Shown piece by piece: positions 6,811 through 30,879 of a stretch of 64,000 nucleotides of DNA. The translations under genes were made by a program, and so were the position numbers. The DNA lies in assembly GCA_013239625.1 (NCBI GenBank), contig MU057346.1, positions 6,720,431 through 6,784,430 on the forward strand. The letters run 5' to 3'. The notes under the pieces were generated by a model. It ran no database searches. It was given only the letters and a program-made list of their open reading frames with translations, and was not told the origin of the DNA. Position 1 is the first letter of the stretch. Every line of letters begins with the position of its first letter. This DNA comes from Lama guanicoe (Eukaryota).

Positions 6811-6816
6811 AGAAGT

Positions 6817-6978
6817 AGGAGGTCTGCAAACTATAGCCCGACCCAGAGTTGCCTGTTCATTTGTTGCCTGCGGCCACTCAGACCCCAGAACAGCAGAGCT
6901 GAAGAGTTGCTGCAGATCACGGCCGGCAGAGCACAGTGTCTCCTCTCTGCATGTCTACAGAAGAAGTTGCTGACCCTG
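6817..6978. mobile_element. MER58A-like MITE, internally deleted
   Basis: aggtctgcaaactatagccc ... gcagagctgaagagttgc ... agaagaagttgctgaccctg resembles MER58A termini. Confidence 0.7.
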
Positions 6979-7552
6979 GACTGGATGGGCCCTCACATCC
7001 CTTAGGAGTTGGCATCTCCACAGCCCTCCGATAACCTAATTTTAAGTTTTTTGAGACCACCTTCAGTCCCAAAAGGGAGCTTATCCATTTCCCTTTTCCA
7101 GAGATCTTGGAGGAAAGGCTGAATGTGTGGGGATGCTGTTAGACCCAGAGGCGAGCTAACTCCATTGGGACAGGCTCCCCGGAGGCATTTTCATGGAGAT
7201 GCAGTGAACCCCACTTCCAGATCAAGTGCCAGGGCTGCCCAAGTTCGTCTGCTCTCCGCTTCCTGAGTAAATGAAAGTGTGCTTGGAAGAGGCTTCACTG
7301 AGGGAGAGCGAGCTGACAGATGCCCAACACGCAATGAGATTTACACTCGCTTCTCTTTCCTGGCAGGTTTCTGTTCCCAGCATCACTCAGGGAGCTAGGG
7401 GCAGGCCTGAGCTGTCCTGCCTGCGGGCTCCACCTGAGGCCGACTCTTGCTCTGAGTCATAGAGTAACAACCACCCTGGGGGTGATGGTGACCCTTGTGG
7501 GTTCCGCTTAGCCCTCAGTAACCCTGGCATTGACTCAGTGGCTTAGGTAGCC

Positions 7553-7940
7553 TGTGTTAGCTTCCTGTGTCTGCCATGGGAAATGATAGCACTCTTGGTG
7601 GCTTAAAACAACAGATTTGTTACCTCACAGTTCCAGAGGTCAGGAGTCAATTAGGGGTCTCCCTGGGCTAAAACCAAGATGTCCACAGGAAGGGCTGATT
7701 CCCTCTGGAGGCTCTAAGGGAGAATCAGTGTTCTTGCCTTTTCCAGCTTCTAAGAGGCCATGAGGCGCATTCCTTGGCCTGTGGCCTCTTCCTCCATCTT
7801 CACAGCTGGCAGTGGTGAGTTGAATCTGCTTACACTGTTCTCTCTCTGCATTTCCTCTCCCAGTTGTAAGGACCCTATGGTAACACCGGTCCACCTAGAT
7901 GATCCAGGATAACCTTATTTTTAAATTCGACTGATTGGCA
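7553..7940 (-). mobile_element. MLT1 (MLT1D-like) MaLR LTR, partial
   Basis: ggtggcttaaaacaacaga...ctggaggctctaagggagaatc...ccttttccagcttctaagaggc is the reverse complement of the MLT1C/D 3' half. Confidence 0.85.
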
Positions 7941-8712
7941 ATAGAGGAACAGAGCAGGTTAGGAATTGATCCAAGATCACACAGCTGGTAAGAGAGATGA
8001 GCTGAACCTTTGGCCTCAGCTACCATCACCTCCAGAACCTGGGGACAGATGGCATAACCAGCAGTGTGAGCAAGGGGCTCCCCTCTTCTGTTAGCTGCAA
8101 ATAGGGGGATAACTGGAGGGAGCCATAGCTCACAGCCGACCCTCAGGGGCACCCCTGTGATTCTCTCTCTGAAGGTCAGAGGCAGATTGTCATTTCTCTG
8201 ATGTGTTTTCCTATTAGAACATAAATGTCCCGGCCTCTTTCACACTCTCCTCATTTCTCCTTTTGAAATGTCATCTCAGTGTTTCTCCAGAACAAGTGCG
8301 AAGCAGGCAGAAGTCGGACACTGGGTTTTTTTGTGCTTGGAGCAGTCTCAGGCTCAGAGCTGCTGTGGCACGAGGTGGGCCCTAAATGGTGACCTGCCCT
8401 GAGGCCCTCTTACCCACTGGAGAGTCAGGGGAGACTGGGTAGAGTATTGATTTCTCAGCCTACGAAGGCAGGTACCAGCACACCTGGTCCTGACCCTGAC
8501 CCTGATGCTTTAGAGGAGAGCATCCTGGCATGAGACCTAGTCAGCTCCAAGTCCAGATTCCTGCCCCAGCACCACTTACACAAAATACCAGCAGCCAAGC
8601 TTGACCTCACACTGACTGTGTCTGGCTCGATTAAGTCCTCTTCTTGGATGCTCTCTTCAAAGTTCAGTGTCCCCTAGCCTGCTAGGGATTTGAGAGTGAA
8701 CAAAACACATCT

Positions 8713-9039
8713 TATGTGGAATCTTAAAATATGACACAAATGAACTTATTTACGAAACAGAAACAGGCTCACAGACATAGAAAACAAACTTGTGGTTACC
8801 AAAGGGGAAAGGGTTGGGGAGGGATAAATTAGGAGTTTGGGATGAGCAGATGCTAACTACTATAGGTAAAATAGATAAACAACAAGCACAGGGAACTATA
8901 TTCAATATATTATAATAACCCATAATGAAAAAGAATACGAAAAAGAATATATATGTATGTATAACTGAATCACTATGCTGTACACCAGATACTAACAAAC
9001 ATTGTAAATCAACTATACTTCAAAAAGAAAAAAAAAAAC
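8713..9039 (+). mobile_element. 5'-truncated L1 3' UTR (older cetartiodactyl-type) with TSD
   Basis: tatgtggaatcttaaaatatgacacaaatgaacttattt...ataactgaatcactatgctgtacacc...poly(A); AAACACATCT at 8703-8712 and 9040-9049. Confidence 0.9.
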
Positions 9040-9251
9040 AAACACATCTGTTGCTCCCTCAGGAACCTTGAGGCAGAGACCGTTTTTGTGCATTTTTCAT
9101 TTGGAGAAACTAAGGGGAGCATCAGGAAGCAGCTTACACAGCTGGTAGGTGACAGAGCCAGGTTGACAGCCTTCTTCCCCATCCCGAGCCCAGGCTCCGC
9201 ACACTGGCTCCATCGCACACCATTTAAATGCTTGGTTTGCTCACTGTAAAC

Positions 9252-9465
9252 CAGCGGTTCTCACTTAAGAATGATGTTGGCCCCCAGGGGACAGTTGGCG
9301 ATGTCAGGAGACATTATTGGTTAATGCATCTGGGAGAGGGCTGCTACTGGCAGCTAGTGGTAGAGACCAGGGGTGCCATTAAGCATCCTGCCATGCACAG
9401 GACAGCCCCCACCACAAAGGATGAGCCAGCCCCCGATGTCCTAGTAACACTGCTGAGAAACCCTG
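9252..9465. mobile_element. MER20, near full length
   Basis: cagcggttctca ... tgcacaggacagccccc ... tgagaaaccctg; both TIRs present. Confidence 0.9.
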
Positions 9466-10348
9466 GTGGAACATGAGAAGAGTGAAACACCCTCTGGGGT
9501 TGCTGTGAGCTTTGAAAGTGGTAACGTGTGTGTTAAACATGGTAAATCTTCTACCTAACCAAGCCCTGTTTTCACCAACCAGACTTCATTTTAGCTGGAA
9601 TCTTGGCTCGCTCGGGGGCCCCCACCCTGCCTAGAGATCCCCCCTTTAATTCTGAGAAGCACCCAGTAATATGGTTCTAGAAGAACTCGCCAATGCTCAT
9701 TTTTTATTTGGCATGGTGTTTTAATTTTTTCTTTCTCATTGCAGAAGACAAATTCCATTTCCTTACTCCTGAGGGAAAACTAATTCCAGCAAACGCCATT
9801 TGTCTTTGGCACCTTAAGATCTAGATAATTTGCTGCAAGTTTATTTTTATTGAAAATTATGTAGATATTATTCAGAAACACAATTTCCAACTCTACGGCA
9901 CATTTCAGCAGATTTTATCTTAAGTGTTAATACATCTACTGAGGATATATGCTCAAATGTCCATTTCTTAAAGATACCCTTTTTTATGACTCTCTGCCTT
10001 TGAGATCCTCAAACTTGTGTGCTATGGAGTGCTGAAGGATTAAGATATTTTCCAAAAGAAAATTGTGTTATAAGTTATGAGCTGTTACCATTCGACTGCA
10101 ATTCAGACTCATGACACTTTATATAGCTTATATGATTAATTCAGAAATAATTTGCATTTAAATGCATTTAAGATATTTAACTTGTGATTCCAAATGTACC
10201 TATTTTAAGCTTAGCAGAATACTCCAAAGTGTGTGGACACCCCTCCGCCCGCCCAGCAATTACATAGACCTGAGAAGGATTCAGATGTTAATTTAGAATA
10301 GCTTTATCAAACTGTTTCTGGAAAAACAAGAACTAAGAGATGGCCCCC

Positions 10349-10350
<2 letters not shown>

Positions 10351-10392
<42 letters not shown>
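10351..10392. repeat. (AC)21 microsatellite
   Basis: perfect AC dinucleotide run. Confidence 0.98.
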
Positions 10393-10395
<3 letters not shown>

Positions 10396-10877
10396 GACCC
10401 ACACTCTCACATGAAAGGGAGTCCTGTGCTCTCTTGGGAACAATTGGGAAACATTGAAAGGCTGGGAAACATTGAAAACTCTAATTGCTTCTTTAAAATT
10501 TGCAGTGTATATATGACACAGTAAAAACAATTTGAAGGCCTTTAGTTGAAAACCTGTTTAAGTGAGCATAGTCCACACTTTAAAAAACTAAACCTTGTAA
10601 CAATGCTTTCCTGTAAGAAGTATTAACCATTACAGAACTCACACTCTGGATAATGTTACTGAGAAAAAATTTAATTGATGAGACCAGAAAGAAACAGTCA
10701 GTGTGGAGTGCCCAGTGGGTGCCAGCATGCCTTCCTGAGATGTTGCATGGTCCGCCATTTTGGAAAAACAATTCTGGAGACAATTTGGCATCAATATTCT
10801 CTATTAATGTAGTGGAACCTAGGCTTATCCTCCTTCCTGTTGTTTTAGCTCATCAAGAGGTAGGGGAGTATCTGGAC

Positions 10878-11260
10878 TAATGGATGGATAAATGAATGTT
10901 GGTCATCCACTCAGTGGGCTATGATTCAGCCATTAAAAAGGAACCAAGTACTGATGCATGGTACAATGTGGGTGAGCCTTGGAAAGATCCTGCTGAGTGA
11001 AAGAAGCCAGACACAAAAGGTTACATATTGTATGATTTCAATCATCTGAAATGTCTAGAATAGGTAAATCATAGAAACAGGAAGCAGATCACTGGGGACA
11101 ACTGGTGGGTATTGGGTTTCCTTTGGGGATGATGAAATGTTCTGAAACTAGACAGTAATGGTGGCTGCACAGCACTGTGAATGCACTAAATGCCATGAAC
11201 TGTTCACTTTAAAACAATTGATTGCACTATGTGAATTTGACCTCAATTTTCTTTTTTAAA
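10878..11260 (+). mobile_element. L1MB-type LINE-1 3' end
   Basis: ctgagtgaaagaagccagacacaaaagg...tttggggatgatgaaatgttctgaaactaga...gtgaatttgacctcaat. Confidence 0.85.
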
Positions 11261-11578
11261 TAACGGAAAATAAGAAATGGTGAGGGAGGCAAGAGCCAGA
11301 GGACAGAAACACTCAGGTGGAAGTCCCAGGAGGAAGAGGGTGGGGCAGAGGGAGAATCCAGGGGCGGGGTGTCCTGCACATTTTCCATGGTGGCCTGGGC
11401 ACCTTGTCCATATCTGACAACAGCTTGAAGAAATTACAGCCTAAAGGGATGAATATTCAGTACACAGAGTGGCCGCTGAGAGACAGGAGAAGGGCAGTAT
11501 CTGCCCAGCTCAGCAGGAACCCACACCACGGCGATGTGTTCATGACAGGAGCCTGGTGACCCACACTGGTCTTTGCTC

Positions 11579-11748
11579 CAGAGTTGGAAGCAAGTGACCA
11601 GGAAACTAAGCTGGACTTTCAGAGTCCTTTACTTACAGTGACCCCTTCTGCAGCCCCGCTCCCAAGGTCGCATTGCATGTCTTCTGCTTAAAGGAAACCC
11701 TCCCAATTGCATAATCTTCGGCTTCTTCACAACCTGAACCAGCCTCTG
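11579..11748. mobile_element. hAT-Tip100 MITE (Arthur1A/MER69-like)
   Basis: cttaaaggaaaccctcccaattgcataatcttc...aacctgaaccagcctctg resembles the recalled terminus. Confidence 0.5.
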
Positions 11749-11871
11749 TGACTTTAGCCTAGTGGAGCCCAGCTGAGGAAGCATCCCAGTTCTCTTCTGA
11801 CGTGGTCAAGCCTCACATTCACTAATGCCTCCTGAAAGTCAGGCTCCGTACATATTGGAGAAGGACTAGAC

Positions 11872-12087
11872 CAGTGTGGCCCAATAGAACTTTCTGCAGT
11901 GATGGAAATGTTCTGTATCTTTGCTTCCCAACATGGTAGCCAGATATATGATCATCTATTACCAGTGGCTTGAGCCCTGGAATGACGGTCAGTGCAACCA
12001 TGAAACTGATTTTTTTTAAGTTCTGTTTTTGTTAGTTTTTATTTAAATAGTGACTTGGCTGATGGATCTGGTATTGGAAAGTGCAGA
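11872..12087. mobile_element. MER3 (hAT-Charlie)
   Basis: ccaatagaactttctgcagtgatggaaatgttctgtatct...tattggaaagtgcag; CTAG-containing flanks typical of Charlie targets. Confidence 0.85.
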
Positions 12088-12099
12088 TCTAGGAAGAAG

Positions 12100-12490
12100 T
12101 CGTGGGTGAAAGTGTTGTTTTTAGCATCACACAGGTCTATATTTTAATATTAGTTTTGCCTGTCACTAAGAAAGGTAGTTTGCGGCAGTTCACTTAATCT
12201 GTAAGCCTTGGTTTCCTCATCTATAAAAAGGTAGAAATGACAGGACCTACTTGCTAGAGCTGTTGTCAAGAGGAAATAAGACATTCCTCATTAAGTGCGC
12301 AGGACTGGGCATTTAACAGTGCTTCAGTAACACTATTTGTTCTTTTTGCTATTGGTTGTTCATCTCTGCTTTACACAGCGGGGCTTTGAAGAACTGAGGG
12401 CTAGGGAGGTGAAGTAACTATGCTCAGGGTCGTATAACCAGAAGGCAGAGGAGTGGGAATTTATTTCCGCATTTCCGATGTCAGAGTCCA
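12100..12490. mobile_element. Two MIR fragments in opposite orientations
   Basis: cacttaatctgtaagccttggtttcctcatctataaaa (+) and gaactgagggctagggaggtgaagtaact (-). Confidence 0.7.
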
Positions 12491-13847
12491 TTGGGTTGCT
12501 GTGGTGCTGGGCTTCCTCCCCTTGGAAGCCTGTTCATCAGGTTCATCCCCACCTAGAGACTGAGACAGGGACTGAGGAACAGGTTTTGTTTCTCCGTATA
12601 AGCTGGTCCATTAAGTATGAGCTATCTGTTGTTTGTTGAGAGTGGGTGAGTAGGAGTTGAAATCCTCAGGAGAACATGTGAATGTGTGAGTGGATATCTT
12701 GTCTCCATAGTGGTCTTTGTTTCTTGGCTGGATTGGTTCTAGCCAGGTTCCAGGCTGGATGAGCACAGATTGGTCTCTGTCGTCTCAGCATCCTGAAGAT
12801 TTTGGTTGAGTCAGATTTTTCAGACACACTATGTATTCATCCAATCTTGATTCATGTGTTAAGACTAAACATCCCCTTTTGAATGTTTTTTCTTCTTTCT
12901 ATGGAAAGTTGCCTCTAAGTCTAGAGAACTAGGTCTGGCATAGAGGCAGGACAGTCTCCTTTTGCTCCAAGTTTAATTGTAAAGAACACGTGTATCCCAC
13001 CGTCTTCACCTGGGAGCTGAGGGCAGGCTTGGGCTTGGGGTAAGTCACATTCTGATCTGAGAGATGAATCAGTCATTGCAAAATCCCTGTATGTGCTCTT
13101 GCTAGCAGGGCGGTTGCATTCTCAAGGAAAGCTTAAGGAACCAAGAATCAGTGCTGGTCTAGGGGCTGATGCTTCACTTCCCACTTTAAATACAGCACCT
13201 GTCTTGTCACATTGGCTGTTTCACAGCCCTGCCCGTGTCATTTCTTAAGAGAAACAGAGGGAGGTTTCATTAACGGGAGAGATCAGCAGTAGTTCAGTTA
13301 TAAGTTATCACTGCAGAGGGAGAGCAGCAGGGTTAGCTCCTCAAGTTGGAAATAAAAAAGATGAATGCGAAGAGGAAATGAAGTTAGTGCTTTACTGCCT
13401 GGATGCTTTGCACTGGTGCTTGAGAAGGGAGGGGAGAGCCCTTTCTAAACACAGATTGTATTCCAAAGGCAAATACTAATTTTTATCTGTGAAAGATCCA
13501 CTTGCTATGTTAAGATTCACAGGCCTCTCTCCAATGCCGTGACCCCAGGACGATCTTATTTTGTGACCCATCAAACTGGTGGCATCCCACTGGCTAACTC
13601 ACGGTAGCCACATGGAACCATAAACCTTCCCTAAAGGGTATGGGGTTCCCCGCGTGTCAAGAAGACAGAACAGTATGGCGTCACTGCAGCCAGTCTATTT
13701 CCTGTGACTGACGTGCTTATTGTGAAGTGTATCTATTCCACCTGCCCCACACATTCACTCTTTCACACTCATTAATTCAGCTGGTGATGACTCAGATCCT
13801 CCTGCCTGTCAGGTACTGTTCAAGGCACTAAGCAATGCATTTAGGGT

Positions 13848-14005
13848 ATCTCTCCCTCTTCTTAGAAGGACACCAGTCAGCCTGGATTAGGGTCCACCCC
13901 TTATGACCTCATTTCACCTTAATTACCCCTTTTAAAGTCCCCATCTCCAAATACCTTCGTATAGGGCGTTAAAACTTCAACATGTGACTTGGAGAGACAG
14001 TTTTG
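13848..14005 (-). mobile_element. MLT1A/B-like LTR fragment
   Basis: ggattagggtccaccccttatgacctcatttcaccttaattacc...ccatctccaaatac. Confidence 0.8.
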
Positions 14006-14184
14006 TCCCTGAGAGACACCTATGTTGAGGAAGATTCTGAGGCCACCTGCAGATCTACAGGAAAGAGAACCGCAGTCGTTGACTGTGTCTTTCTCAGGAA
14101 ATTGACATTCACGCCACTTGCACACTCTGCCCAGCTGAGCGGGTGTCCCCGCCTCCCTGGCTCAGATGGAATTACCCTCAAAAA

Positions 14185-14370
14185 CAGCTAACACTTTCAA
14201 GTATGTGCGATGTGCCTCCTGCTATTCAGGTAGCTTTTTTTCTTTGTGAGAACCCAGTGGGGTAGGTATTACTACTATCTTCAGTTGACAGTTGAGGGAA
14301 GTGGGGCACCGAGAGGTTAAGCAGCTCACCTGAAACAGGCTTAGTAATCGTGGAGCCTGGTCCTGGCTGA
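14185..14370 (-). mobile_element. MIR SINE
   Basis: gtaggtattactactatcttcagttgacagttgagggaagtggggcaccgagaggttaagc. Confidence 0.7.
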
Positions 14371-15201
14371 ATATATTTGAATGTAAGACTATCATACTTA
14401 CTGTCAGTGTGTATAGGAGATCTTAGCCTCAGTGGAAGTGAAGCTTTACTGGAATAAGAAACCTCTCAGACAAACACTTTATCCAATTGGCTTAGATTTA
14501 GATTTTTGGGGAAGTGTAGCATCACCATTTTAAGCATATTCTTCTTCCTTAGCTATGAAGCTTTCTCCCGTAAGGGTTTATCAGCTTCATAGAAAAGGTT
14601 TTTGTGGGACCACCTAATTCCCATCTCTGGAAATTCAGAATTCTGAAGTCCATCCACGTGTCTTCCTCTAAAATTAGGAACGTACCAAAGAGTCAAGCTT
14701 TCTACTTCAGGAAAGTGTATTGACCACTGTTTTTTTTTTCTTTTTTTCCTGCATCTGTTTGTTTTTTATTGCTGAGTTTTCGGTCTGTATCTTTGTCTAC
14801 AGCTCTGTCTTTACTGATGGTGTTTGTTTTAGATTTGTGAGCATCAAGGGAGCTGAGACAGCACACTTTAAATGGGCTTCACCATGTTGGCACAGCACTT
14901 TGTAAATAAAGGCCCAATAATTAATTCAACAAACATCTAGTGAGCAGTTGTGTGTGGAACAGTGTGCAGGGCACATGGCTGATGTTCAAGGTGTGGCAAA
15001 GAGGGCATCTCTTTTCTCAGAATTATAGTAATATTAATAGAAATGTTGGGGTAACAATATTAAGGACTACCACTTATAGAGCCCATCTCATCTGCCCGAA
15101 ACTGTGCTCCAGTTTTTACATACATTCTCTTAATTCATCTATGCTCTTGAGCAATTGTTTCCCTCAGAACACAGTCTAGCAAAATGGTGATGGATGCTCT
15201 G

Positions 15202-15755
15202 TGTGTCAGGTATCCCCCAAGACCACCGTCACTTTGAATAATTCTCTAGAAGAACCCACAGACTCGGCATGTTGTCACACTCATGGCTAGGATTTATTAC
15301 AGCGAAAGGATACTGAGCAAAATTAGCACTGGGCAGGAGCGCGGGGAGATGTGGCAAGGAAACTGGGCGTAGGCTCCCAAGGTGCCTTTCCTGGTGGAGT
15401 GGCCCAGAATGTGCTTAATTCTCTCAGGCAGGACTTGGGCCAGCACACGTGAAATGCTTGCCGGGGAAGCTCATTGCAGACTCCTTGCCTAAGGTTTTTG
15501 TTGGGGGCTGGTCACATAGGTGTCATCTGCCTGGTGTGCAGCAGGACTCCAGACTTCCAGAAAGAAAGCAGGTGGTTAGTAGAAACCATATGTTTTCGTA
15601 TGAACAGGTTGGGTACTGTTAACCAACCTTATCTGTTAGGAAAGAGTGGAAAACCCGTCCAAAATCCAAGTTCCCAGATGCCAGTCAAGGGGTAAACTTG
15701 GAAGCAGGCCTTCCTAGGGACAGCAGTCTCTGCTGTGTTAGCTCTTTTCTGCACA
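15202..15755 (-). mobile_element. Complete solo ERVL LTR (MER68/MER77/MER21 group)
   Basis: Minus strand begins TGTGCAGAAAAGAGCTAACACAGCAG and ends GGTCTTGGGGGATACCTGACACA; 554 bp; degenerate 5-bp TSD ctctg/ttttg. Confidence 0.8.
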
Positions 15756-15763
15756 TTTTGCCA

Positions 15764-15810
15764 TAGACAGACAGACAATGGATAGATAGATACAAACAGA
15801 CAGACAGACA
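15764..15810. repeat. (GACA/GATA)n compound tetranucleotide repeat
   Basis: tagacagacagacaatggatagatagatacaaacagacagacagaca. Confidence 0.8.
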
Positions 15811-17089
15811 TATCCATAACCAGGTTTGAAAAACCAGTTGATCAAAGTTAAGCCGGTTTCTTTACCTCTGGATTCTAATAGTCCAGACTCATTTGACCAG
15901 GGATATCTCCCTTCGTCTCCCAACAGAGCAGCTTAGAAGACTTTTGCTTTATAGGAAATGACTTCAAGAAGTTTTTTGGTGAGAAGATGACATTGGTCTC
16001 ATTAGGGTCAAACACTGGAGAAATTCCACTGCAGGAGAAGTCACTTTAAAATGTATGATTTATCTTTTACTTTACACTTCAGCACTGACAGATGATTGTT
16101 GACCTAAGTATCATCTCAGATGTTGCTCAGAAGTACCAAGAGAGAAGGGCTGAGGCTGAGCTGGCCTCCTTGAGATGTAAAATCTGAGAAATCCACTTAA
16201 GACTTAGAATTATTAGCTGTGGTCTTTACAGATTTATCAAGGGGTCACCTGTTAATTAAATAATTATCTTTTTCATTTGAAATTAAATTCAGATTGTTTT
16301 CCTATGCAAGGGACTTTAACCAGGGTTAGATCTGGAGCTATGAAATGCAATTTAAACATATTTTCAGCATACTGAAAACCTAACCTAATTGTTTTCTTCT
16401 ATCACTGAGAAGTTTTTTGCCTAAAACCCAAATTAGTTCTTATTTATTGTTACAATCAAGATTTGAGAATAGGCTTTTATTCAGTTAAGTATCTGGACTA
16501 GAATTTATTCATTCTCCAGATGCATTAGTTTTGGAATCATTGAGAAGACAGGAACCCAGTTTCCACTAACATTTCCAAGAGGGATCTTTAAATGTTCACC
16601 TGTGGGAAAAATTTTATGTGAAATCTTGAAAAAGACGTAGTATTTTTCTGTTAGTAAATTATTGTTTTTCCCCTGTCAGAGTGGTGTACGATTATTTTAT
16701 TCCTTGACTTCTGCTTCCATCTGCATTTGCAAACTTCACGATACTCATCTCCTCATCAGGGCCTCATGCTGATTGATTTACTGATTTTCCCCAATGATGC
16801 TCTGCAATCTATCAGTCCTACCTGTAGCCTGGAGTGTTTCTTCATCTCCTCACTTCTCCATGGTTCATTCATCTCCATTTGTCTTTGTTTTTCTTCTAGG
16901 TAATCTACTTTAAGAAGCAATCACTAAATCCTGTTGGAGTGATCTATAAAATATTTCTTCCTGGGTTCCATCCTGAGCATTACTTTCTCAGTTCTAACTG
17001 TCATTTTCACCTGAACAGGTGAGACTCTTCCCTTTGGCTTTTAAGCACTGGTCTGTTCTCCTCCCCAGTGTTCCTGCCAGAGGCTTAAC

Positions 17090-17285
17090 ACTAGATCTGG
17101 TCCTTTCCTTGCTTAAGCTATCAGCACTTCTCTGCTAACTTCAGGATAAGTCCAAGTGGGACACAGACCCTTGGCCATGTGTTTCCTTCTTCAGTTCTCC
17201 TTCCAGTGGTGCTTCTGCTCTGCCATACTGAACTGCTCATCATTTCCTTAATGCACCTTGCTGCCTCAGTGCCTTTGCACATCCA
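17090..17285 (+). mobile_element. L2 fragment
   Basis: cttcaggataagtccaa...gccatactgaactgctc...gcctcagtgcctttgcacat. Confidence 0.6.
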
Positions 17286-18339
17286 TATCTAATGGGTTGC
17301 TGGGATGGCTTCTGCAACATGGGTGATGACTGACGTGAACCAGGAAGGACATCTGATTTGATTTGGGGGAGGGGTGAAAATGGATGCAGGAATGTTTAGG
17401 TCTTTAGCTCTAGGCAAAGGGATCCTGTGGACTTTAGGATTAGAGATCATTCGATCTATGCCATCCCAGGAAAGAGAGGAGAAACAATTCACAGACTTGA
17501 TTTTAAGGAAAGGACAGATGGGGTCTGGCAGGTCCTTTAATTTAAGCCCACAGGAAGGTGGCAGCGTGGGACAGAAACTGGCGATATATTCTGTACCTGG
17601 TATCATTTACTTGGACACTTGGATAGGATATGCTTCCAGAGGAGGATCTCAGTGGCTGAGTTGCAAAGAGCTGGGAGTGTTACAGGGTTTGATGAGGGCT
17701 CAGGCTTGTATGGGCTTCAGTAGGGCACACACTGCACTCTTGTATCAGGACCTAGCGCCTCTCCTTCCTGCTTCATTCTGGACGTCTTGAGAATACAGTC
17801 CACTCTATCCTCACTTTTGTTTTTTAAAAAATGACCACAGTGGCACACTACCTATAAAACATGTGTTAAACACGTATGTTATTGAGATCTGGATATCACC
17901 CCCACCACCACCCTGCATTAAATCACCTATAAATACTTGCGTTATTGTTTCTTTTCCTCTGGGGTTACTTTTGGATTTCCCATGAAGCCTAAGAAAAAGA
18001 TAAGAAGTTATTATCTATACCATTTTTAACTATTGGGTTTATTTTAAATTTAATCTTAGAGACAGGAATCAGCTTTCCTCATTCATCATGTTCATTCCAC
18101 CTGTAATTCTAAATCCTTTCAATGGACAAACCAAACAGTGCTCCAATATCAAATCCAGAAATCAAGCCTAAATACACCCCATGAATATCAGCTAGTGAGT
18201 TACAGCAAATAATAAAACACGCTTCCAAAGGACAGATGCTTCTTAAGGAGACCTGCTGCTCTTTAAATGTCACCCACGGATTAGGGTCCTTTGTTCTGCT
18301 CTGTCTCTACAGCTCTGTTTAATAAGTCCAGGGGACACC

Positions 18340-18798
18340 AGGCTGTTGGGCAGGGGACTAGAAAAGGGGGGGTGGGGAGAAGGCAAGATGAAGCCATAGG
18401 GGAAGGTTGATGTTTTCTCATTTCTGAGGGCTCTTCCTGATCAGGGGGTGCTGAGGAGATGGGGGGTGAGCACTGTGAGAATCCACAGGCTTTGTTCGAC
18501 TCACAGCCTCAGACTGCTGCCATCAGCGGGGCCAAGGGGAGGGCGTGCTCCAGGAAGGGAGAGAACAGTGTCGGTGTGTTTGTGTGTGGGTGAGAAGGAG
18601 CGAGAACAGAGAAAAATTAAAATCCCAGACTCCGGGACCGCGTTCTTCAGGAGTGGGTGTGTTTTTGCTGCTGTCCGCAGCCTTTCCTAAGCTTGTGGGA
18701 GCTTATCAGAGACTTCACCGAGATCCGCAGCACCAAATCAGCGACAGGAAGTACTAAAAATTACTTCACAGGGCTAAGAACTTAAAATGAAAGTAAGC
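18340..18798 (+). promoter_or_regulatory. Putative promoter plus first (or 5' UTR) exon ending ATG AAA | GTAAGC
   Basis: Repeat-free, locally CpG-enriched; GGGGTGGGG and GGGCGTG KLF/SP boxes, CTTATC (GATA), ACAGGAAGTA (ETS); no ATG from 18462 to 18786; ATG at 18787 with A at -3; donor GTAAGC at 18793-18798. Confidence 0.45.
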
Positions 18799-19527
18799 CT
18801 AAGGAATCATCAGTAGGTTGGTAGATGAAGAGAATTCTCTCACAATGTAGCAAGTCTCTTTTCTCTCCTGCTCTTCAACATTAACTTTCCCGTTCCCTTT
18901 CCGTCTCCTGGAACTTTTCCCAAAAGCACTCAGGAACTTCTCTGCTTCTCATCTTAAACAGACCTTCCCCCAAGTTTCTTCCTTTTCCGTTTTTCTATTT
19001 CTGGCCCTTCCAGTCTTAACCAAACCCAAAGCTTCACCCTTTGCTCTATGCAGGGAAGTCCCCTGCCCAGCCCAGAACTCCTACCATCCCGTGTTGCCAC
19101 CTGCCACATGTATCAGCTCCAAGTTATCTTTTGCCATCTTGCCCTTCCTGTTTTCCCAAGCTGAACTCAACATCCTTGTGTCTAATTCTAGCAAAGAATC
19201 TGCTAATGTCTTTCATTTTTTAAGTTCACTGTCTCTCTCACCCCATTTCTTTGTCCTGAAGGACTGGACTGGAAATCATGGTCTCTGTCTGACCCTTAGG
19301 AATCATTTTGAGTTGGGGAAAAGTACACTTCCAAGTCCAGGGTACTCAGGGGTATCCCCCAGAGCTTTATTCCTAACACACAATTGTTGTGTGCCTGGAC
19401 CTTAACCTTAGTCTTCCCTGAGTCATTGCCAACACTCAACTCTCTTTAGCAAGTTACATGTCATACAGAACCTGTTTTTGAAATACATCGACCAGACCAA
19501 GTAGAGGATATTGTGTCCTTTAACCAA

Positions 19528-19727
19528 GGGACGATGTGCTAGAGCCAGCTCATCCACTCTCCTGCGATGCTTGTTGGAATCTCTTTCCAATTCCACATTC
19601 AGTGTTTATAGCTTGACATCAGTCACGACAGGAGAGTTTACACCCTGGAAATGGGCAGGTGCTGCAAGCCAAGGCTTTTTCACTTTTCCAGAAAGCTGGT
19701 GGTTAATCATTTACCTGCATACCCCTG
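19528..19727. mobile_element. MER63A-like (hAT-Blackjack)
   Basis: tgtgctagagccagctc...tttacaccctggaaatgggca...ggttaatcatttacctgcatac. Confidence 0.7.
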
Positions 19728-21029
19728 CCCCTACCAGACTTACCAAACAGAACTTAACCTTGTTAGAGGTTAGCCACAAAAAGAGTTCATGAGACGTCCA
19801 GGGTTCTGTTTGGATGAAGAGTTCCCAGTAAAAAACTCCATATCTGTCCAACTGAATAAGATTTTAAAATCCAAGTTTCTTTCTATAAATGTTTAGCTAA
19901 CAACCCCTGTCCCCCAAAATAGCACTGTCATTGACCAACCAAATAGTTGTTTCTGCGCAACAGGAACAACAGACACGAGAGAACGAATAACTCAAGATAC
20001 CTGAGGTGGTTAGCAGCAAACCCTTTAGCTAAATGGCTGTACTCATGGGGCGTGAGAGTGATAGTGATTGTAACTTATCACCGCCTTTAAGATATAATGC
20101 TTTTGGTCTAGGTTAGGTTTCCTAGAACTGTAAATCTGAAGAAATATTAGGAGGAGAGTCAACTGCCTCTGGGGTCTTATCTGAAAGGGCAGGCCTCTGA
20201 GATCTGGATGGATGGGCTGCACGCCAGAGACCCTGTCTCCCCGCCTTGGTAACACTGCTGGATAGCAGCTGGAGGCTTGGTTCCTTCTGAGGAGCAGGCG
20301 TGTTCTGTGGGAGATGAGGGCACCGTGTGAAGTCACCTGGCTGGGACATCAGAGCTGAGGCTGCCTGGAGGGAGGCACATACCTAGAAAGCCATCTGCCC
20401 AGCCCAGCGGAGCTTTGTGAGCATTTAACGTGCAGACCCAAAGGGTGTGCCTCTTTCTAGTCCCCAGGAAGCTGCTCCAAGGCTGGTGCCCCTGCGTAGA
20501 CTGATCCGTGGGTGGGAGGGGAGGGTTAAGTTCTGTTGTTATCCCAGGCTTAACAATTTCCCCCGTCCATCTTTACACTCCTGTGCCAAGCACCATATGA
20601 GCTAGCATCCTTACGCCAAGTATACTTTCATTTTAGGATATGAGTGGCGTTTTTAGAATTTGAAGAGAAAGTTTTAATTTCTCCTGATGTGTTTGCTCTA
20701 CCTTTAGGCAAGTATTTATTAGGATTTTATGGTTAATATAATAATGGCCATAACTTCCTAATGAATGCAAATGGAGAAATAAGATTTTATTAAGCAAGAA
20801 TGATCATCTTAACACCATTATAAAGTTGTGTTTATGGAAAACATTTTAGGAGTACACCTGTTCTTAAAAGCGAATCTTACCCTCCTTTCTTGTGCTGAGG
20901 ACTCTTGGAGACTTACACTGAGCCACCTCTGGTGTGACGAGCAGTTGTGTGAGGTAATGAGTGGTGAACGCTGGCATCTCAGCTGCCCTGGGAAGTTAAA
21001 CGCAGCACATTGTCTGAGGCACACCCGGT

Positions 21030-21220
21030 GTTGGGGGCGATGACCCCCACCCCCAGGGGTCATTTGGCAACATCTAGAGATGTTTTTGATTGTCCTGAAT
21101 ACAGAAGGAAGTGCTACTAGCATCTAATGCACAGGTTCACCAGTCCCCAATGTGGGGGACAGGACAGCCCCCACCAGAAAGAATTAACTTGTCCCAAATG
21201 TCAGCAGTGTAAGAAGTCCA
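21030..21220. mobile_element. MER20
   Basis: ccaggggtcatttggcaacatctagagatgtttttgattgtc...caggacagccccca...cccaaatgtcagcagtg. Confidence 0.85.
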
Positions 21221-22569
21221 TAGGGTAAGAGGTCAAGTCTTATAAAGTCAAGTCCCGAGTTAAGATAATACACTCAGGTGTCACAGGGACTTGTTTCCAT
21301 ATCCCAAATTCCAAGACCTCAACTGTTTGAACTTCTACATCCTGGTTTTTAAACCAAGCAGTGAGACTCAGGAATCCCTTTGATAAAGTGCCTCATGTTC
21401 TCCACCACCATCACTGTCAGCCATTTACATCATTCACTGGCCACGTTTCTCCTTTTCACTTTAGCCAACAAGATGCACGGGGTCAAGCTTGTGGTTCAAG
21501 CATAACAGCTACATCTGTGGACGGCCTATCGTGTGCATTTCTCTTTGATCCTTCTTCTCATCTATTTGTAATTCCACATTAATTGCGTTTAGATGTGCAG
21601 GCTCCCTCGAATCCAGTGTGGATTCACGTGCGGTATAAATAAATTTTTTAAAAACCCAAACCTTGAATCTGTTCAATAATTCTCCAGGATTTTGCTTAGC
21701 TTTTTTTGTGCTTCTTCCAATTTGAGACCCACAATAAAAGTGCATCACCTAGCTTCTCTTACTGGCTGACTGTAACTATAAAAATAACTGATTCCCATAC
21801 CAAGTCTAACAGGATCAATTAAATTCCCTGTAAAAATGTCTCTAGTAGGGGGAAATGCTGGGTGAGATGCTAAAATTCATGTGTCCAAAAGCAAGAGGCC
21901 AGCTCTTTCTTGTTTTTCTGCAGCTGATCAAAGTGCTCCTTGAGCTCCTTGTAGCTTCTTTTTGCCCAAGGTGTCTGTGACAGATGGCTTAGGAAGCAGC
22001 AGGAATGCACAGAACCTCTTTTTAATAAAAACTGCTAACTATAAAGGAAATTGACTATTGAAGAGATTGAGTATTCAGTCACTGAAAACTGTGTCAAGTC
22101 AGGGCACATTACGACTTTCTCAGCGTGGGCTGTGTGGCCATGACGGCGGGCTTTGAAATTAAAAAGAGAAGTGGAGACATGCCCCCAAAGGCCAGCCCCC
22201 TCCCCTTTCTCCAGCTTTAAACTAGGGTCAGTTGCAAGATGCCTATTTTTATTTGCATCGGAACATTAGGACTGCGTGCAGAAGATGGCTTCCTCACAGA
22301 TAAAGACAATTAAGCCTCTTAAACGTTGGGAAATGTCTCCCCAAGCATATTCAGATATCAGGCTTTTACTCCACTTGAGAAAGTCCCTGCCATCCTGCCC
22401 GGCTTGGCCCGTCCTGAGAGGGCTGTGCTGGCCCAGATGTCTGCGCCTCATTTAACCCTTGAGAGGCCCCTTGCTGGACTCATTGCTTCCCTGGTCCAGT
22501 AGCAGGATGAATTCAGCAACCTGGGACAACTTTGGTTGTGATATTTGTGATACTTGTAATGGAGTGGCA

Positions 22570-22760
22570 CCCTGGTGTAGTCAGGGCTGGGTTCAAAGTC
22601 CAACTCTGCTTCTTCCCGACTAAGCAAGCTGTGTAGCTTTATCTGTAAAATAAGAATATTGGCTCCTAATTCATAAGGTTCATCTAAAGGTTACAGGAGA
22701 CAATGTTGGTAAAGCACTTTATGGTAAAATCTACTAATATGCTAGATGCGTGGTAGGAAT
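22570..22760 (+). mobile_element. MIR SINE
   Basis: gggttcaaagtccaactctgc...atctgtaaaataagaatatt...gtaaagcactt. Confidence 0.65.
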
Positions 22761-23169
22761 CAGAAAGGGGAAGTTGACAGCCTAAGTATGGTCAAACCTA
22801 GGAGAATTTGACGTAGACTCAACCTCATAGGGCTGTTAAGGATAAATTGCTCATTGTAAGTACAATTGTATTTTTAAAAATTCTAAGTATTTATGAGGAA
22901 CTGATGCTCTGAGATTCAGAACCCATTGTGCCTTCATCTTAAGTATTGCCAACTCGGAGCGCTTCGAGGCCACAAGGACATTCAGGATAATCTTTCAAAA
23001 CATTACAAATATTGCGAGGCACCTGCAATGGAGGGGATGTGATCCCTGCCCACAAGCAGTCCCCAGCCCCTCCCGAGCCCCTCAGAGGTCTGCAGCCTGG
23101 CCGTGCCCTCGGGAAGCTGTGATGGGCCCTGATGTGTCTCATACTCCCTAACTTTCCCTCTCTCCTACA

Positions 23170-23530
23170 AATGCGTATTGCTCACCCGTTGTATCTCTTG
23201 GGGCCTGTATGCTCTGTGTTGTGGGGCAAAGGTGGTTGTCCTTGGAGCTCATTATCTGGTAAGGAAGCAAACATTGAACAAGTAAGATTAAGTGATGAGT
23301 CTCTGAAGGAAAATACAGGACACCATAGGAACACAGAATGGGAGGTCTTAACCAAGTCTGGGGATGGAAGAAGGCTTTTCTGAAGAAATGATGTCCAATC
23401 CCTCTTGCCTGAGGGTGAGCAGGAATGAGCCACACAAAAAAGGGCTGAGTCATGGACAAAGGGACAGAATGTGCAAAGCCTCCAAGGGGGGAAGTGATGG
23501 CGCGTTCGACAGATTGAAAGAAGCCCCTTG
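23170..23530 (-). mobile_element. L2 3' region
   Basis: gtccttggagctcattatctggt...ggaagaaggcttttctgaagaaatgatg...gacagaatgtgcaaagcc. Confidence 0.65.
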
Positions 23531-23867
23531 CAGCTGCAGCTTCAGTAGAATTCATCTGTATTTCCTGTTTTTGTTTACTAAAAGTGAAATGGTAAGATAA
23601 GAAATATAAGGAGCATTGAAGTTGATCCAAAAAGCAAAGGTTCAAGGATGCTGGTCTCTCCCTTCCCCACCCCCTTCTGCTTTTAGGTTCAATTCATTGC
23701 CTCCATCGGTCCCAGTTCTTTGGTACTGGGTCCATGATGTAAGAAGTTTACAAAACTTCTTCTGTCAGGGAAGGTATCTCCCTGAGTCTCTTAGGAAGAT
23801 GAACCCCCAGTGGGTGGGGCCACACACCAGCAAAGGCTGATTATCTTAAAGATTTATTATTGCTTTA

Positions 23868-24168
23868 CTCTTTTCTTTAAATATTTGTTTATTTATTTTC
23901 TTATTGATGTACAATCAATTACAATGTGTTTCTGGTGTACAGCACAGCACAATGTCCCAGTCTTGCATATACATACATATGTTCATTTTCATATTTTTCC
24001 ATTAAAGGTTAAGATATTGAACATAGATATAAGATATTGAACATACTTCCCTATGCTACACAAAAGAAACTTTTTCCAATCTATTTTTATATATAGTGGC
24101 TAACAATTGTAAATCTCAAACTCCCAAACTTATCCCCTCCCACCCCTGTTCCCTGGTAACCATAAGAT
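23868..24168 (-). mobile_element. 5'-truncated L1 3' UTR (same subfamily as 6512-6810)
   Basis: T-rich tail, then ctggtgtacagcac...aatgtcccagtc...aaatctcaaactcccaaacttatccc...ggtaaccataag. Confidence 0.9.
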
Positions 24169-25264
24169 TAAATGTGTGAGATGATAGATGAAACCAAGCA
24201 CCTTTATAACCGAGCACAAACTGGTGGTGGTTTGTGGGATATTTTTTATTTAGGCCACGAATTATACTAATATTGTTCATTAAGATGAATGAAAGCGTTG
24301 ATTTGGCTGAAAAGCATAGCTCTCCAGAGGCATGTCAAAGTCTGACTATTAAAAAAAAATTTCTACTGCTAATATTTTCAGCTGAAGTAGCCAAAAAAGG
24401 TGTATCATATTTAAAATTGCAACACCCTACTGAGAATGGCCCTCTTTAACAGCCCTGTTTCCTGATTATTAAGATGAACCTTCTTAATGTACCCAATAAA
24501 AATTAGACTCAAAGATGCCTACCAGCTTTAGTGGCTGCAATTGGAAAAATACGCCAGCGAAGCCCAAAAGCTGAAAGTAGTGTGGTCACTGCAGATCAGG
24601 ATGAGAGAAGGGCAGCCTGTGAAAGATGAGGGGCAGTGGTCTGCCTGCTGCATGGCTTTCTGGAGTTGCATGGAGACCACTGGCATGTCTCAGATGTGAC
24701 CAACACATAGGTGCCAGGGACAATTAACAGAGCCAGGGTGGCAAAGCCATTAACTCAAGAAGAGAATCTGCCATTCGGAGACGTTAATTTAACATGACAC
24801 CAACAGGGGTGTTTATATGTGCTCATCGTGGTGTCAGACATTCTGCTCTAATGGAGTTAATTAAAAGTTAATGGCATAGAGCGCATCACCAAGATGCTGT
24901 AAACGACAGGCACGTGACCAGTCCTCATACCCTCTTGTTTGAATGCATCTTTCACTCACTGTCAAATTCCACTTCTGAAAGATTCATTCCACCATCACTG
25001 CCTCTCCCTCTCCCTTTGAAGAGGGTGAGTGCTGTTCCATTTGATACATAGACAAAGGGAACCGGGAAAGATAAAAGGAAGCTTGTGTGCTCTGTCGTAA
25101 TATCGCCCTTAATTGCCAGCCGTGTACTTGAGCGTGTAGATCAGAAGAGGGGTGCTCCTGTTACAGCTGTGGTGGGACAGGGAGGGGGGTCCCTGCTGGA
25201 GGCGGCATGAAGGTGACGAGAGGGGACAGTGCTCAGAGGACGAGGTTTCAGTCAGGTTGGTGCA

Positions 25265-25455
25265 GATCTTACGAGGTGGGAAAGCCACGTAGCCTCTCTG
25301 AGCTTCCTTTTGTCATCTGTGAAAGGGAGATGAGAAGAGGGTCCAGTATCCACGTCATCGGATGCTCCGCCCAGTGAAATGGGAGAATCTCTCTCAAGCC
25401 CTTGACACAGTGTTGGGCATGAGTGCGTCTTCGGTAAAGGCTGGATGCTGCTGAT
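25265..25455 (+). mobile_element. MIR SINE
   Basis: cctctctgagcttcc...catctgtgaaagggagatgag...aagcccttgacacagtgttgggca. Confidence 0.65.
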
Positions 25456-25617
25456 TCGAGAGTCTCTTCTGTGAGTGGGGAAACAAAATCCCCAGGCATG
25501 GTTTTACTGTGCTTTCTGCCTTTGTTTGGGCAGCCAAAGGGGCTCTGCGTGTTAGTTTTTATATGCTGGGTTGTTTGATTAATTTATGTTACAGATGTCT
25601 CTAAAAGGGGATGTTGT

Positions 25618-25748
25618 GAGGAGGGTATAGCTCAGTGGTAGAGTGCGTGCTTAGCATGCATGATGAGGTCCTGGGTTCAATCCCTCGGACCTCCACTAAC
25701 AAAAACAAAAACAAAAACAAAAACAAAGTTTTAAACTTTAAAAAAAAA
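25618..25748 (+). mobile_element. Camelid tRNA-derived SINE (Vic-1-like)
   Basis: A-box TAGCTCAGTGG, B-box GGTTCAATCCC, (CAAAAA)n/A tail; weak TSD aaaaggggatgt / aaaaggtatgt. Confidence 0.85.
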
Positions 25749-26202
25749 GGTATGTGCAGCATACTCACAGTACAGGCAGAGAAGCACTGAAGAATCATTC
25801 ATGTGAGACAAGGCAAAGCCAAACCAAAAAGGTCTCGGTCTTGCATCCTAAGAAATGCACTGGCTGACTTAAAACTGAGCTCCACGCCTCCCAGCATCTT
25901 ACTCGGGCCTCATGTTTACTGTGCTGCGAACCAGAGCACCTTTTCCGAAAAAGGAGGCAGACTTCTTCAGGGGCCTAAATTCTACAAAGAGTCTGTGATG
26001 GGTCATCACAGAACCCAGTGAACATAATTTTTGAGTAATTTTAACAGTTAAAAGATAGTGAAATGAAGCAAGTCTTAAATGGCTCTTTCTTGGGACAACT
26101 CTTGATGAAGGTCAAAGATAGTGACTTTTAAACTTTTTTGATAGAACCCCTACAGTCAAAAATGGATTTTCCACCACAGTCCAGTACCCTCAACACCCAC
26201 GT

Positions 26203-26230
26203 GCACATACACACACACACACACACGCAC
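26203..26230. repeat. Imperfect (CA)n microsatellite
   Basis: gcacatacacacacacacacacacgcac. Confidence 0.85.
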
Positions 26231-26624
26231 GAAATGAATTTTATAAGTAATACTGACTGTCTTTACTATAGGTGTTGCTTGCTTTCTAATTTCTCCTCTG
26301 CTTGCTTCTGTTACTTGAAGTGCTGGCTGTGACCTATAAATTGATTTCATAATCTGGAAATGAATTGTGACACTCGGTTTTAAAAACACTGATCCAAGGT
26401 GTTAGGTAAGAAAATATTTCTGTGAAAGTACCTAAGTGGAGAGACAGGGATGAGTGGGGCTAGGTGTCTGGGGTTTTGGAAGGAATTAAATCTTTTATTA
26501 GCATTCATTTCTCATCTTTCTGTCTCCTCCCAGGCATGGTGGCTTCTGCATGGCCCAGAGTCCCACCAAAGGGAGGCTGTGGGCGCTTTGATTGCTTTTA
26601 ATCTCAGCCTCTCTCAGGAAGTAC

Positions 26625-26735
26625 TTCAACAAAGAATCAGCTGGGATCTTAGTGGGCCCGGGTGGGGCCTGAGATTCAGCTCTAACCGGCCCCCAGGTGC
26701 TGAGGCTGCTGGGCCCCAGACCATACTCTTTAGAG
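26625..26735. mobile_element. MER5A fragment
   Basis: ggggtggggcctgagattc...tctaac...ccaggtgctgaggctgctgggccccagaccatact. Confidence 0.7.
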
Positions 26736-27330
26736 TGAGGAGAGGTAAACACAAAGATGGCACCTGTGTTTCCAGTCGGACACCTCAGCCCCATCCACTG
26801 ACACCCCTTTGTCTTCCAAGGCCATCCTGTCTCTCGCCACTCACTTTTAGAGAATGATTATGCCATTTATTTGCTTTTGCTGAATTTTTTTTTAAATCGC
26901 TTGGATGAAGTTGAAAATGAAAAAAGAATGTACTTGAAAAGCTCTCAGAACTGACAGTAAAACTGATGAGACAGATCCTTAGAGAGGCTGCGAAGCCGAG
27001 GAGCTCCAGGCTTTGGTAGCAGCTACTGGTGTTGCTCCCTTCAGATGAATGAACCCACACCAAGGGCCCCTTGACAGAGACACTTGAATTCCAGAGAGGG
27101 TCCAAATGGCCTAGCTTGGGTAACAGGTCCACCCCTTAGTCCTCCGCTAGGACAGGGCATCTTGGCTGACAGACCCACCAACAGGGCAATTATGCTTTAG
27201 CCACCATCCAAAGGGCCATGTGTGGTTGACCATCTAAATGGCAGTGAGAGGGGAAGAAGTGCTCTTTGCTGAGTTCCAACTCTGTGTCAAGCACATGACA
27301 GATAGTATTAACTTAATGCTCATCTTAAGC

Positions 27331-27575
27331 CAATGGTTATCAACTAGGAATGATTTTGCCTTCCAAGAGATGGTTGGCCATGTCTGGAGACAATTTTTGG
27401 TCATTGCAACTGGGTTGGGAGTGCTACTGGCCTCTGGTGGGTAGAGACCAGAGAGATTGCACTTCCTTTCAGATCTCATATGGTCCTGCTAAATGTTCTA
27501 CTGTGCACAGGACAGCCCCCTCAGCAGAGAAGTTATCCAGTCCAAAATGTCACTAGTGCCAAGTGGAGAAATCTG
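27331..27575. mobile_element. MER20, full length, nested in a MIR
   Basis: caatggttatcaac...atgtctggagacaatttttggtcattgcaactggg...tgcacaggacagcccc...gagaaatctg; MIR-like sequence on both flanks. Confidence 0.85.
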
Positions 27576-30204
27576 CAGTAACTCTGAAAGATATTAGTGG
27601 TTTCCTCTTGTCTTCGTTTCATGAATGACAGAAAGTTAGGTCCTTGTCACAAGGGCAGACCTCAGTTAGGTAACTCGCAAGTTGCAGAACTAGAACTTGG
27701 ACCAGGAGGGGGGTGGTTCCAGGACACGCCACCTTCTTTGCTGTACCTTTGAAAAATAGCCTCATGCATGTAAAAGGGTGGAGGGGAGGAGAGGCACTCA
27801 GACAGAAGTTCTGTAAACCTCGTAACAATGCGCAAGCCCCGCTTTTGCTAATCAGACATGTTCTATCCCATCTGGAGCCATTCCAACCTAGCAGGTTTTC
27901 ATTTAACGGTAACGTGTGGAAAGGCTTCGTGTCTGAGGTTACCTGGTGCAGCTGTCTTCACGCTGGCACAGTGAGAAGTTACCAAGTGATTAATAGCCGT
28001 GGTGTTTCCCGAAACATCCAGGTGGAAGGCACAACCAGCTTCCTCTCTTTTAATATTCAGTCGTATAAATTGAATATAACAGGGTAACTGCAGGCACCCC
28101 TGGAGACCTGGGAGTGAGCTTTAGACTCATGTGACCTCCTCCAAGTATAATTTCCCCAGACCACATGGTGGGTAATGGGCCTCCATCCCTCGGATTTATC
28201 CACAGGGAAGAGGGCATTAAGTCTGTACGGTTGTGCTATAATCAGATATGCAGGGAGACAGAACTGGAGGAACCTTTTCCCCATGCTGTCTCTCCTGAAG
28301 TGCTTGTCAATAAAAGCAGACTTGGGGCAGACATTTTGTTTGAAAAGAGGAAATGTCACTTCCTTTCGAATCTCGTATGGTTCAGGTGAAGAGCCTGGAG
28401 TTTTTCTAATTATGCTGTGAGCCACTGGGAAGTATGAACACGTTTTGCACATTAAAAGACCTGGATTTTCTTGAACACCCAGGGGAAATGTTCTCGCTGT
28501 AGTGCCCCACCTTCACCTTAGGAAGAACCATCCGAATTGAAAAAGAAATCTGCAGCAGGAGAGAAAGTATAAAGAAAACTGAAAAAAAAAATCATAACTT
28601 TCAAGTAAAAGGGTTTCCTAAAAAATTCATGAGATGGGGCATAATAAACAGCCTGGAATAACATGAAACCAAAATATCAACAGGTTTTCTTCTGCAGATG
28701 TTTCTAATGTATTTGGGGTGGTTTTTGATGGTCAGTATTTTCTATTTCGAGCAGTTTTGCCCATCATTTTTATGTTGCCCACTGGAACTACTGATTGATA
28801 ACGGTTTTTGCCAATTAGTCTAAATTCATTAGACCTGAATGTGATTGTATTTCAGACCAACCAGCTAAATTGATATTATGTTGTTTTTCCTAAGAGTAAT
28901 TGAGTGACTCATAGGAAATAGGGACATATTCTTTTAAATTTGATATTCGTAGTTCTTGATATAGTCTGGTATTTAGTAACATTTTGCTAAGTAAATGAAT
29001 ACACTACAGAAATAGATATAAATAAGTAAGGTGGGGAAAGATGGATGGGCTGTGTGTGATTACATGAGAAACACAGGAGTCATGGCTCCTAAAGAAACTT
29101 GGATTTCACTCCAGTGGAGTCGATGATATGGGTGTTTCCATGAAGTCTGGGAAATAATTACAGAAATCAAACATTCCACCTTTTTGCACACAACATCCTG
29201 TCTCTTGGTTTTCCTCTTTCTCCCCAAATGCTTGGAGCATTTCCTGTGATCAATGAGTGTGCAACAGCAACCTTTCATTTTCAGGAGTTCAGGCCGTAAG
29301 TGACTGCCTTGTACTGCGTGCACATCTGCCTTTTCAGAAGCATCCCTTTCCTCCTGGTTCTTCCCCTTTGAGATACACAGAGATCTTCCAGCCATTCTAC
29401 ATGACAGATCCCAGGTGTCTGGGGCAGATTCTTTGACCATCCTTCAAATGAAGGGTCTTGACTGTTCCCTCACCACTTTCCACTAGATGGTTAATGTCAG
29501 ACAACAGCTCTTTAAAATAAGATCTCCAGGATGTGGTTTGCCCGTAACATCGGCTATTATTAAAATTCATTAATGGCAGCTACATAGACTGATTATAATG
29601 GCTGTTTCAGTGTGTTCATCACCTTCCAGAGATTGGCTTCTGCTGGCCTGGTCTCGCCTCTTGAAGCTCCTGGGAACATCTGAAAGAATGGAAACGTAGT
29701 CCTTGTCCTTTACTAAGCCTCTTGACTCAAGACAAAGATGCCTAAATAAGGAGAAAGGGTAGAACACGCGTTAAGCCAGTAACTCCCATGGGGATGTTCA
29801 AGGCACCAGCACCACAGACATCACACACAGCAGGTGTCTCCCACCTGACTCATGGTGGTGGGTGAGGTGCATGTGCTCCTTGAGCCCTCTCTCTGCCCAC
29901 CTCTAAGTGCTTCTAGCTTTCACTCATTATTCCTGGTCACAAGTGGAGGTGTCTTCTCGTGACCTGCTCTGTGACTCACAGGCATCTCCACCTCTCTGCT
30001 GAGTTTCAGCCGATTTCTCTTCTCCAGTCATGTTCTGATTGCAGCTGCCGGTGGTTGTGTTGCCTCCAATCGCTTGTCTGATTAAACATCTTTATTTGCC
30101 AGTACTTCCAGCCTCACTTTCCTCCTCAGCAGCAGGGATCTGGGGGGAAGGAGCTCGTGAAACCCAAAAGTGCAGCAAGGACCTACATTGTTTGTGGAAA
30201 CAGA

Positions 30205-30680: not shown

Positions 30681-30879
30681 AGGATTTCAAAGAAGTAGTG
30701 AAAATTGCCTGCCATGTTTACATCACCTCACCTTCCTTCCTTCACTCATGTGTTTGCCTAACCATCAATGTACTTTCTATTCTCGGCATTATATGAGACA
30801 TCGAAAATGGAATCATAAATAAGATATGATCCTGGTTCATGAAAAGGAGGCCTGATAAAATGGTGGCTAGTTGCCCAGT

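Follow-up and report, generated by a model that had tools for sequence, protein, structure and literature searches.

A CpG-retaining, single-copy, and likely cis-regulatory element in intron 5 of the Lama guanicoe CDH13 gene

The window, i.e. the whole stretch of 64,000 nt that was analyzed, lies entirely within intron 5 of CDH13 (encoding T-cadherin) and in the sense orientation. An exon scan of the window did not find a convincing coding exon, and the analyzed DNA was therefore widened by 200 kb on either side to 464 kb. The exon-like frames in the flanks corresponded to CDH13 exons 3, 4, 5, 6, and 7, all on the + strand and numbered by what we take to be the scheme of the human gene. Pfam Cadherin_pro or Cadherin domains (the CDH13 domains being PF08758 and PF00028) were identified in three of the four CDH13 exons scanned, and the best PDB matches of the exon frames (3k5r and 2v37) as well as the protein database matches were cadherin-13. 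Exons 3-7 and four later exons were collinear on one contig, and those scored were 87-94% identical to whale CDH13. The last base of exon 5 is contig position 6712938 and the first of exon 6 is 6816272, therefore placing the window inside this 103,333-nt intron, 7.5 kb beyond exon 5 and with 31.8 kb between its own end and exon 6. An earlier note had assigned its candidate first-exon site to a large gene, which is CDH13 with the site on its sense strand, and the phase-0 start that an in-frame splice from that site calls for was found in exon 6. The candidate donor is situated 26 kb 3' of exon 5 and 77 kb 5' of exon 6. The features of the locus are given below, including their state in one relative that is about 3% diverged.

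1..64000, + strand: part of CDH13 intron 5, both intron ends in phase 0
18369..18377, + strand: GGGGTGGGG, presumably a KLF/SP-like GC box, not reached by the contigs of the relative
18405..18874, no strand assigned: CpG-retaining, single-copy, likely cis-regulatory element with its slowest-changing core at 18566-18874
18541..18547, + strand: KLF-like GGGCGTG, unchanged in the relative
18577..18583, + strand: TGTTTGT, which we take to be FOX-like
18655-18661, + strand: second KLF-like motif, GGGTGTG
18662..18680, + strand: acceptor-like tract ending in AG at 18680, moderate score, no use seen
18681..18792, + strand: putative exon of 112 nt, or the 3' portion of a first exon
18702..18707, - strand: GATA motif (CTTATC on the + strand)
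18744..18753, + strand: high-consensus ETS motif ACAGGAAGTA, unchanged in the relative
18787..18792, + strand: ATG AAA (Met-Lys) with A at -3, in frame with exon 6 if spliced
18793-18798, + strand: donor-like GTAAGC, crossed unspliced by all three contig sets

The element thus holds a cluster of lineage-factor motifs (ETS, GATA, KLF, and FOX-like), and the motifs, ATG, and donor-like and acceptor-like sites described in the earlier note were all recovered at these positions. Its ATG-free leader of 325 nt was likewise present, the nearest ATG 5' of 18787 being at 18459, and its description of the stretch as repeat-free was borne out by the lack of tandem repeat overlap and by a single match in the 2.05-Gb genome. 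Self-comparison with the 464 kb of surrounding DNA gave only a weak 45-nt match (E 0.005) touching the element, and no Rfam match was found at it. A repeat or retrocopy origin is not supported for this single-copy element. When an approximate weight matrix was applied to the + strand of the window, the donor GTAAGC ranked 46th among 3463 GTs and the acceptor 139th among 4727 AGs. The donor scored 4.1 bits with this matrix, below all five of the CDH13 donors scored (5.1-6.4). Two reading frames that span the element gave zero matches when searched against proteins, and the three matches of an exhaustive protein search were tandem-repeat proteins at 31-42% identity that were rejected as orthologues. 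The long open frames at 17362-17790 and 18851-19405 had no Pfam match, the latter (+ strand) running for 184 codons without a stop through the pyrimidine-rich tract 3' of the donor and being probably compositional.

The CpG enrichment claimed for the site was local as described and modest in size (12 CpG, observed/expected 0.41, GC 0.53). The interval 18500-18799 carries 11 CpGs, a count within the highest 1.1% for windows of 300 nt across the 464 kb. CpG islands are defined by an observed/expected ratio of at least 0.6 with GC above 50%, and the ratio at the element was 0.41-0.56, below that of a CpG island promoter. The CpG-richest part of the window is 38001-38750, with 22 CpG per 500 nt and a GC of 0.57, and 38001-38500 is richer in CpG than the candidate element.

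Comparison with the relative, drawn from three contig sets, covered 2759 aligned nt and revealed 74 substitutions. The core at 18566-18874 (309 nt, an interval chosen post hoc) had one substitution compared to 9.2 expected, and the scan-corrected probability of this dip was 0.048 for any such gap and 0.011 for a gap covering both the ATG and the donor. In the covered part of 18340..18798, an interval fixed beforehand by the earlier note, all changes numbered 6 compared to 11.3 expected (p=0.066) and non-CpG changes 4 compared to 6.9 expected (p=0.19). In the same part, 12 of 14 CpGs were common to the relative, compared to 6 of 21 in a total of 977 nt of flanking sequence (Fisher p=0.0016). 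The tally of CpG and non-CpG changes came from 40 of the 79 differences and is off by at most one over the contigs used, and the contig runs were picked by words common with the stretch, which may slightly favor similarity there. The CpG retention suggests low germline methylation or purifying selection at the element; such retention is also typical of promoters.

The ATG, the GT, the acceptor, the ETS motif, and two KLF-like motifs were identical in the relative, this comparison covering one genome of about 97% identity. The sole core substitution (A18708G) changes TGATAA to CGATAA and weakens the GATA site. A motif-pattern scan of metagenome contigs, with a pattern that also required the GATA base changed in the relative, produced one match lacking BLAST similarity to the window that was rejected as chance. 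The relative also carries 20 extra nt after 18550; this segment begins with CAGGAAG as does its flank, pointing to a microhomology deletion or a duplication within the element. The constrained core extends about 80 nt beyond the donor and 115 nt 5' of the acceptor, and the constrained region is thus wider than the exon.

The combination of start codon and donor is by itself near the chance rate. When a pattern of purine at -3, ATG, at most 17 nt, GTRAG, and 300 ATG-free nt upstream was counted over the 464 kb, two instances were found on the + strand and two on the - strand, making one such pattern per 64-kb window unremarkable. An ATG-free run was reproduced in 95 of 3000 dinucleotide shuffles. 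ETS and GATA motifs within 60 nt of each other occurred in 6 of 3000 such shuffles, for motifs picked after being seen, and the real DNA had seven ETS and GATA pairs in 464 kb, among which the element's pair has the most CpGs. Intron 5 contains 14 phase-0 ATG-donor motifs, and only the one at 18787 is preceded by 300 ATG-free nt. A further motif was observed in intron 4 at contig position 6677554 (+ strand), with a phase-0 Met-Ser-Thr followed by GTGAGT, 300 ATG-free nt, and nine CpGs, and an antisense ATG-donor motif lies 1.4 kb from it at 6678967 (- strand); such candidates are therefore not rare.

RNA evidence was drawn from four of 24 candidate runs over 17000-20700. One of the four, the raw-read run X24, gave no reads there, and the evidence consisted of three contig sets (X1, X6, and X7) from three studies, X7 being only guessed to be RNA. 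Depth in X1 and X6 was flat at 5-7 over the element and on both sides of it, and in X7 it was patchier at 3-5. The contigs of all three sets read through the donor unspliced and look like CDH13 pre-mRNA or DNA. No splice joints or loose ends were present at 18680 or 18792 in X1, X6, and X7, which represent few tissues and, being contigs, drop rare forms. An abundant spliced form is absent from the sampled X1, X6, and X7 material, and the proposed use of the donor or acceptor thus found no support in the three sets.

Since exon 6 is in phase 0, ATG AAA|GT would splice in frame, and the predicted product has 503 residues (Met-Lys plus residues 213-713). Exon 6 starts at residue 213 of 713, which is position 75-76 in an EC1 structure of about 105 residues. 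As read from the whale orthologue, the predicted form lacks the signal peptide, the prodomain, and about 70% of EC1 while keeping the hydrophobic C-terminus, and no signal-like segment followed the join (best 10-residue hydropathy 1.83 compared to 2.6 for the real signal). The attachment of GPI anchors takes place in the lumen of the ER, and precursors that lack a signal tend to be degraded. A signal-less GPI precursor of this kind would probably be degraded, and a product without a signal peptide makes a functional T-cadherin isoform unlikely. Adiponectin binding requires EC1-EC2 (PMC12902817).

None of 220 CDH13-like proteins, among them 15 of the 715 in the main mammalian cluster, started with Met-Lys followed by exon 6, and ordinary cadherin-13 clusters came up first when protein clusters were searched with the exon 6-14 protein. 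The "MK-" isoform put forward in the earlier note is consequently not annotated in any of the 220 proteins, and its ATG-donor pattern occurs at chance frequency. As positive controls, four of nine alternative post-exon-5 tails and two of six alternative heads before exon 6 mapped elsewhere in intron 5 (E <1e-4), two further tails being too short for mapping, and none of the six heads or nine tails mapped to the candidate site. The suggestion that 18681-18792 could instead be an internal exon was upheld as far as the 112-nt segment has acceptor-like and donor-like ends and failed for a coding exon, as reading it in phase 0 after exon 5 meets TAA at 18783-18785, a stop at codon 35. An internal exon of this kind would therefore be a poison exon.

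Other observations in and near intron 5 concern annotated CDH13 variants and repeats. Window positions 1463-1531 (+ strand) match the post-exon-5 tail of a 237-aa humpback whale CDH13 model (74% identity, E 1e-10), and this is a putative cryptic terminal exon site in intron 5. At positions 53682-53717 (+ strand) there is a match to the alternative tail found in a deer CDH13 isoform of 227 aa (E 1e-5), and the surroundings resemble an old MLT-type LTR, so that the match may be another copy of the repeat. Upstream of the window (L041, about 7367-7402, + strand), a match to the tail of 229-aa cat-family CDH13 isoforms was identified (E 3e-7). Models ending after exon 5 occur in several mammals and would be a secreted prodomain plus partial EC1. 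Three tRNA-derived SINE copies were identified via the Rfam tRNA model at 25621-25695, 54902-54973, and 60347-60418.

A neutral stretch of intron with a chance coincidence of motifs, CpGs, and the ATG-donor pair is unlikely: the bare pattern at its chance rate, the weakened GATA site and 20-nt indel in the relative, the non-CpG divergence that is not significantly low in 18340..18798, and the picking of the site by a scan of 64 kb all speak for it, and are opposed by the CpG retention in the pre-fixed interval and by the divergence dip in the core. A rather unlikely reading is an internal promoter restricted to certain tissues, with a first exon that ends in ATG AAA and is spliced to exon 6 to give the 503-residue T-cadherin. 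Having lost its signal peptide and prodomain together with most of EC1, this form could neither arrive normally at the surface nor bind adiponectin, and it would be cytosolic or tail-anchored via its hydrophobic C-terminus. The sense orientation and phase shared with exon 6, the unique ATG-free leader among the 14 phase-0 motifs of intron 5, the unchanged ATG and GT within the constrained core, and the promoter-like CpG retention are consistent with such a promoter, and a weak lead comes from platelets, on which first-domain antibodies fail while full-length ones bind (PMC8003554). These points are countered by the lack of a joint in X1, X6, and X7, the absence of an MK start from the 220 proteins, the equal frequency of the ATG-donor pattern in antisense, a donor weaker than each of the five CDH13 donors scored, and a joined product without a signal-like segment (whale orthologue); PCR in the platelet study moreover gave isoform 1 only (PMC8003554). 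The fuller proposal of a hidden intron 5 promoter driven by ETS, GATA, and KLF factors and yielding a headless intracellular 503-residue T-cadherin is doubtful and should be regarded as quite improbable.

A poison cassette exon at 18681-18792, shifting the frame and exposing the transcript to nonsense-mediated decay through the stop at codon 35, is very unlikely. Both splice-like ends exist and are unchanged in the relative, the in-frame stop is present, and cryptic exons are annotated in intron 5 of other mammals. Both sites are, however, moderate in score, no joints were seen at 18680 or 18792 (in three contig sets made without a block of nonsense-mediated decay), none of the nine alternative tails maps to the site, the reading frame was absent from the longer proteins searched, and constraint reaches well 5' of the acceptor. 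A promoter or exon of an antisense or intronic non-coding RNA within CDH13 has hardly any probability in our estimate. Human CDH13 hosts several lncRNAs (PMC12393607; PMC12250294), while the available text of these two sources places none of them in intron 5, the element has no Rfam match, and depth across it showed neither a local rise nor a joint.

The element in CDH13 intron 5 is most likely, with a confidence slightly above even, an ordinary intronic enhancer-like control element, as judged from its motifs and comparative features. We infer factor binding, with ETS, KLF, and possibly GATA or FOX proteins as the predicted factors, and CDH13 as the target. The element would likely help to set T-cadherin transcription in vascular-type cells, a cell type inferred because of the motif mix and the known endothelial expression of CDH13. 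The Met-Lys-donor motif is probably incidental. Were the element to initiate sense transcription, the first good donor would be GTAAGC, from which a minor spliced meRNA-type RNA carrying exons 6-14 could result; its signal-less protein would probably be degraded. Points against an enhancer are that the sole core change weakens the GATA site, the 20-nt indel, and the non-CpG divergence (p=0.19). A real first exon would account at least equally well for the in-frame phase, the sense orientation, and the 325 ATG-free nt.

CDH13 counts among the loci for adiponectin level and for coronary disease (PMC3161336; PMC12393607) and its regulation was called relatively unexplored in a review (PMC12250294). 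Mapping a control element to intron 5 would add to this in a modest and useful way, intronic enhancers being ordinary. The element would gain in importance only if the Met-Lys exon were really used, since it would then provide an intracellular, adiponectin-blind T-cadherin and affect the reading of 3'-based CDH13 expression measurements, and if true this would place inside the cell a receptor for adiponectin and LDL that is known as a GPI protein of the surface. Among the papers listed by the literature searches, no title or abstract opening described a CDH13 intron-5 promoter or an MK isoform, and CAGE or cCRE tables may hold the site.

Among known CDH13 forms, the annotated N-terminally short proteins differ from the predicted product in that the 459-aa forms start from a Met inside exon 6 and the 536-aa big-cat form uses another upstream piece. 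Platelet T-cadherin hints at a form missed by first-domain antibodies, yet at 160-250 kDa, on the surface, and GPI-anchored, it is unlike a short signal-less form (PMC8003554); being heavier, on the surface, and of isoform 1 only, the platelet protein does not support the short form. The closest parallel is with the intragenic enhancers that produce meRNAs (PMC4054604). The defining features of meRNAs are chromatin high in H3K4me1, starts seen by CAGE, and polyadenylated RNA that is spliced, whereas the element described here is a sequence-level candidate, and the examples in the available text of that study are mouse erythroid genes and not CDH13 (PMC4054604). The element is like them in lying inside a protein-coding gene and in carrying GATA and ETS motifs, and as in meRNAs its sense donor would pass a transcript to the downstream exons of the host (PMC4054604).
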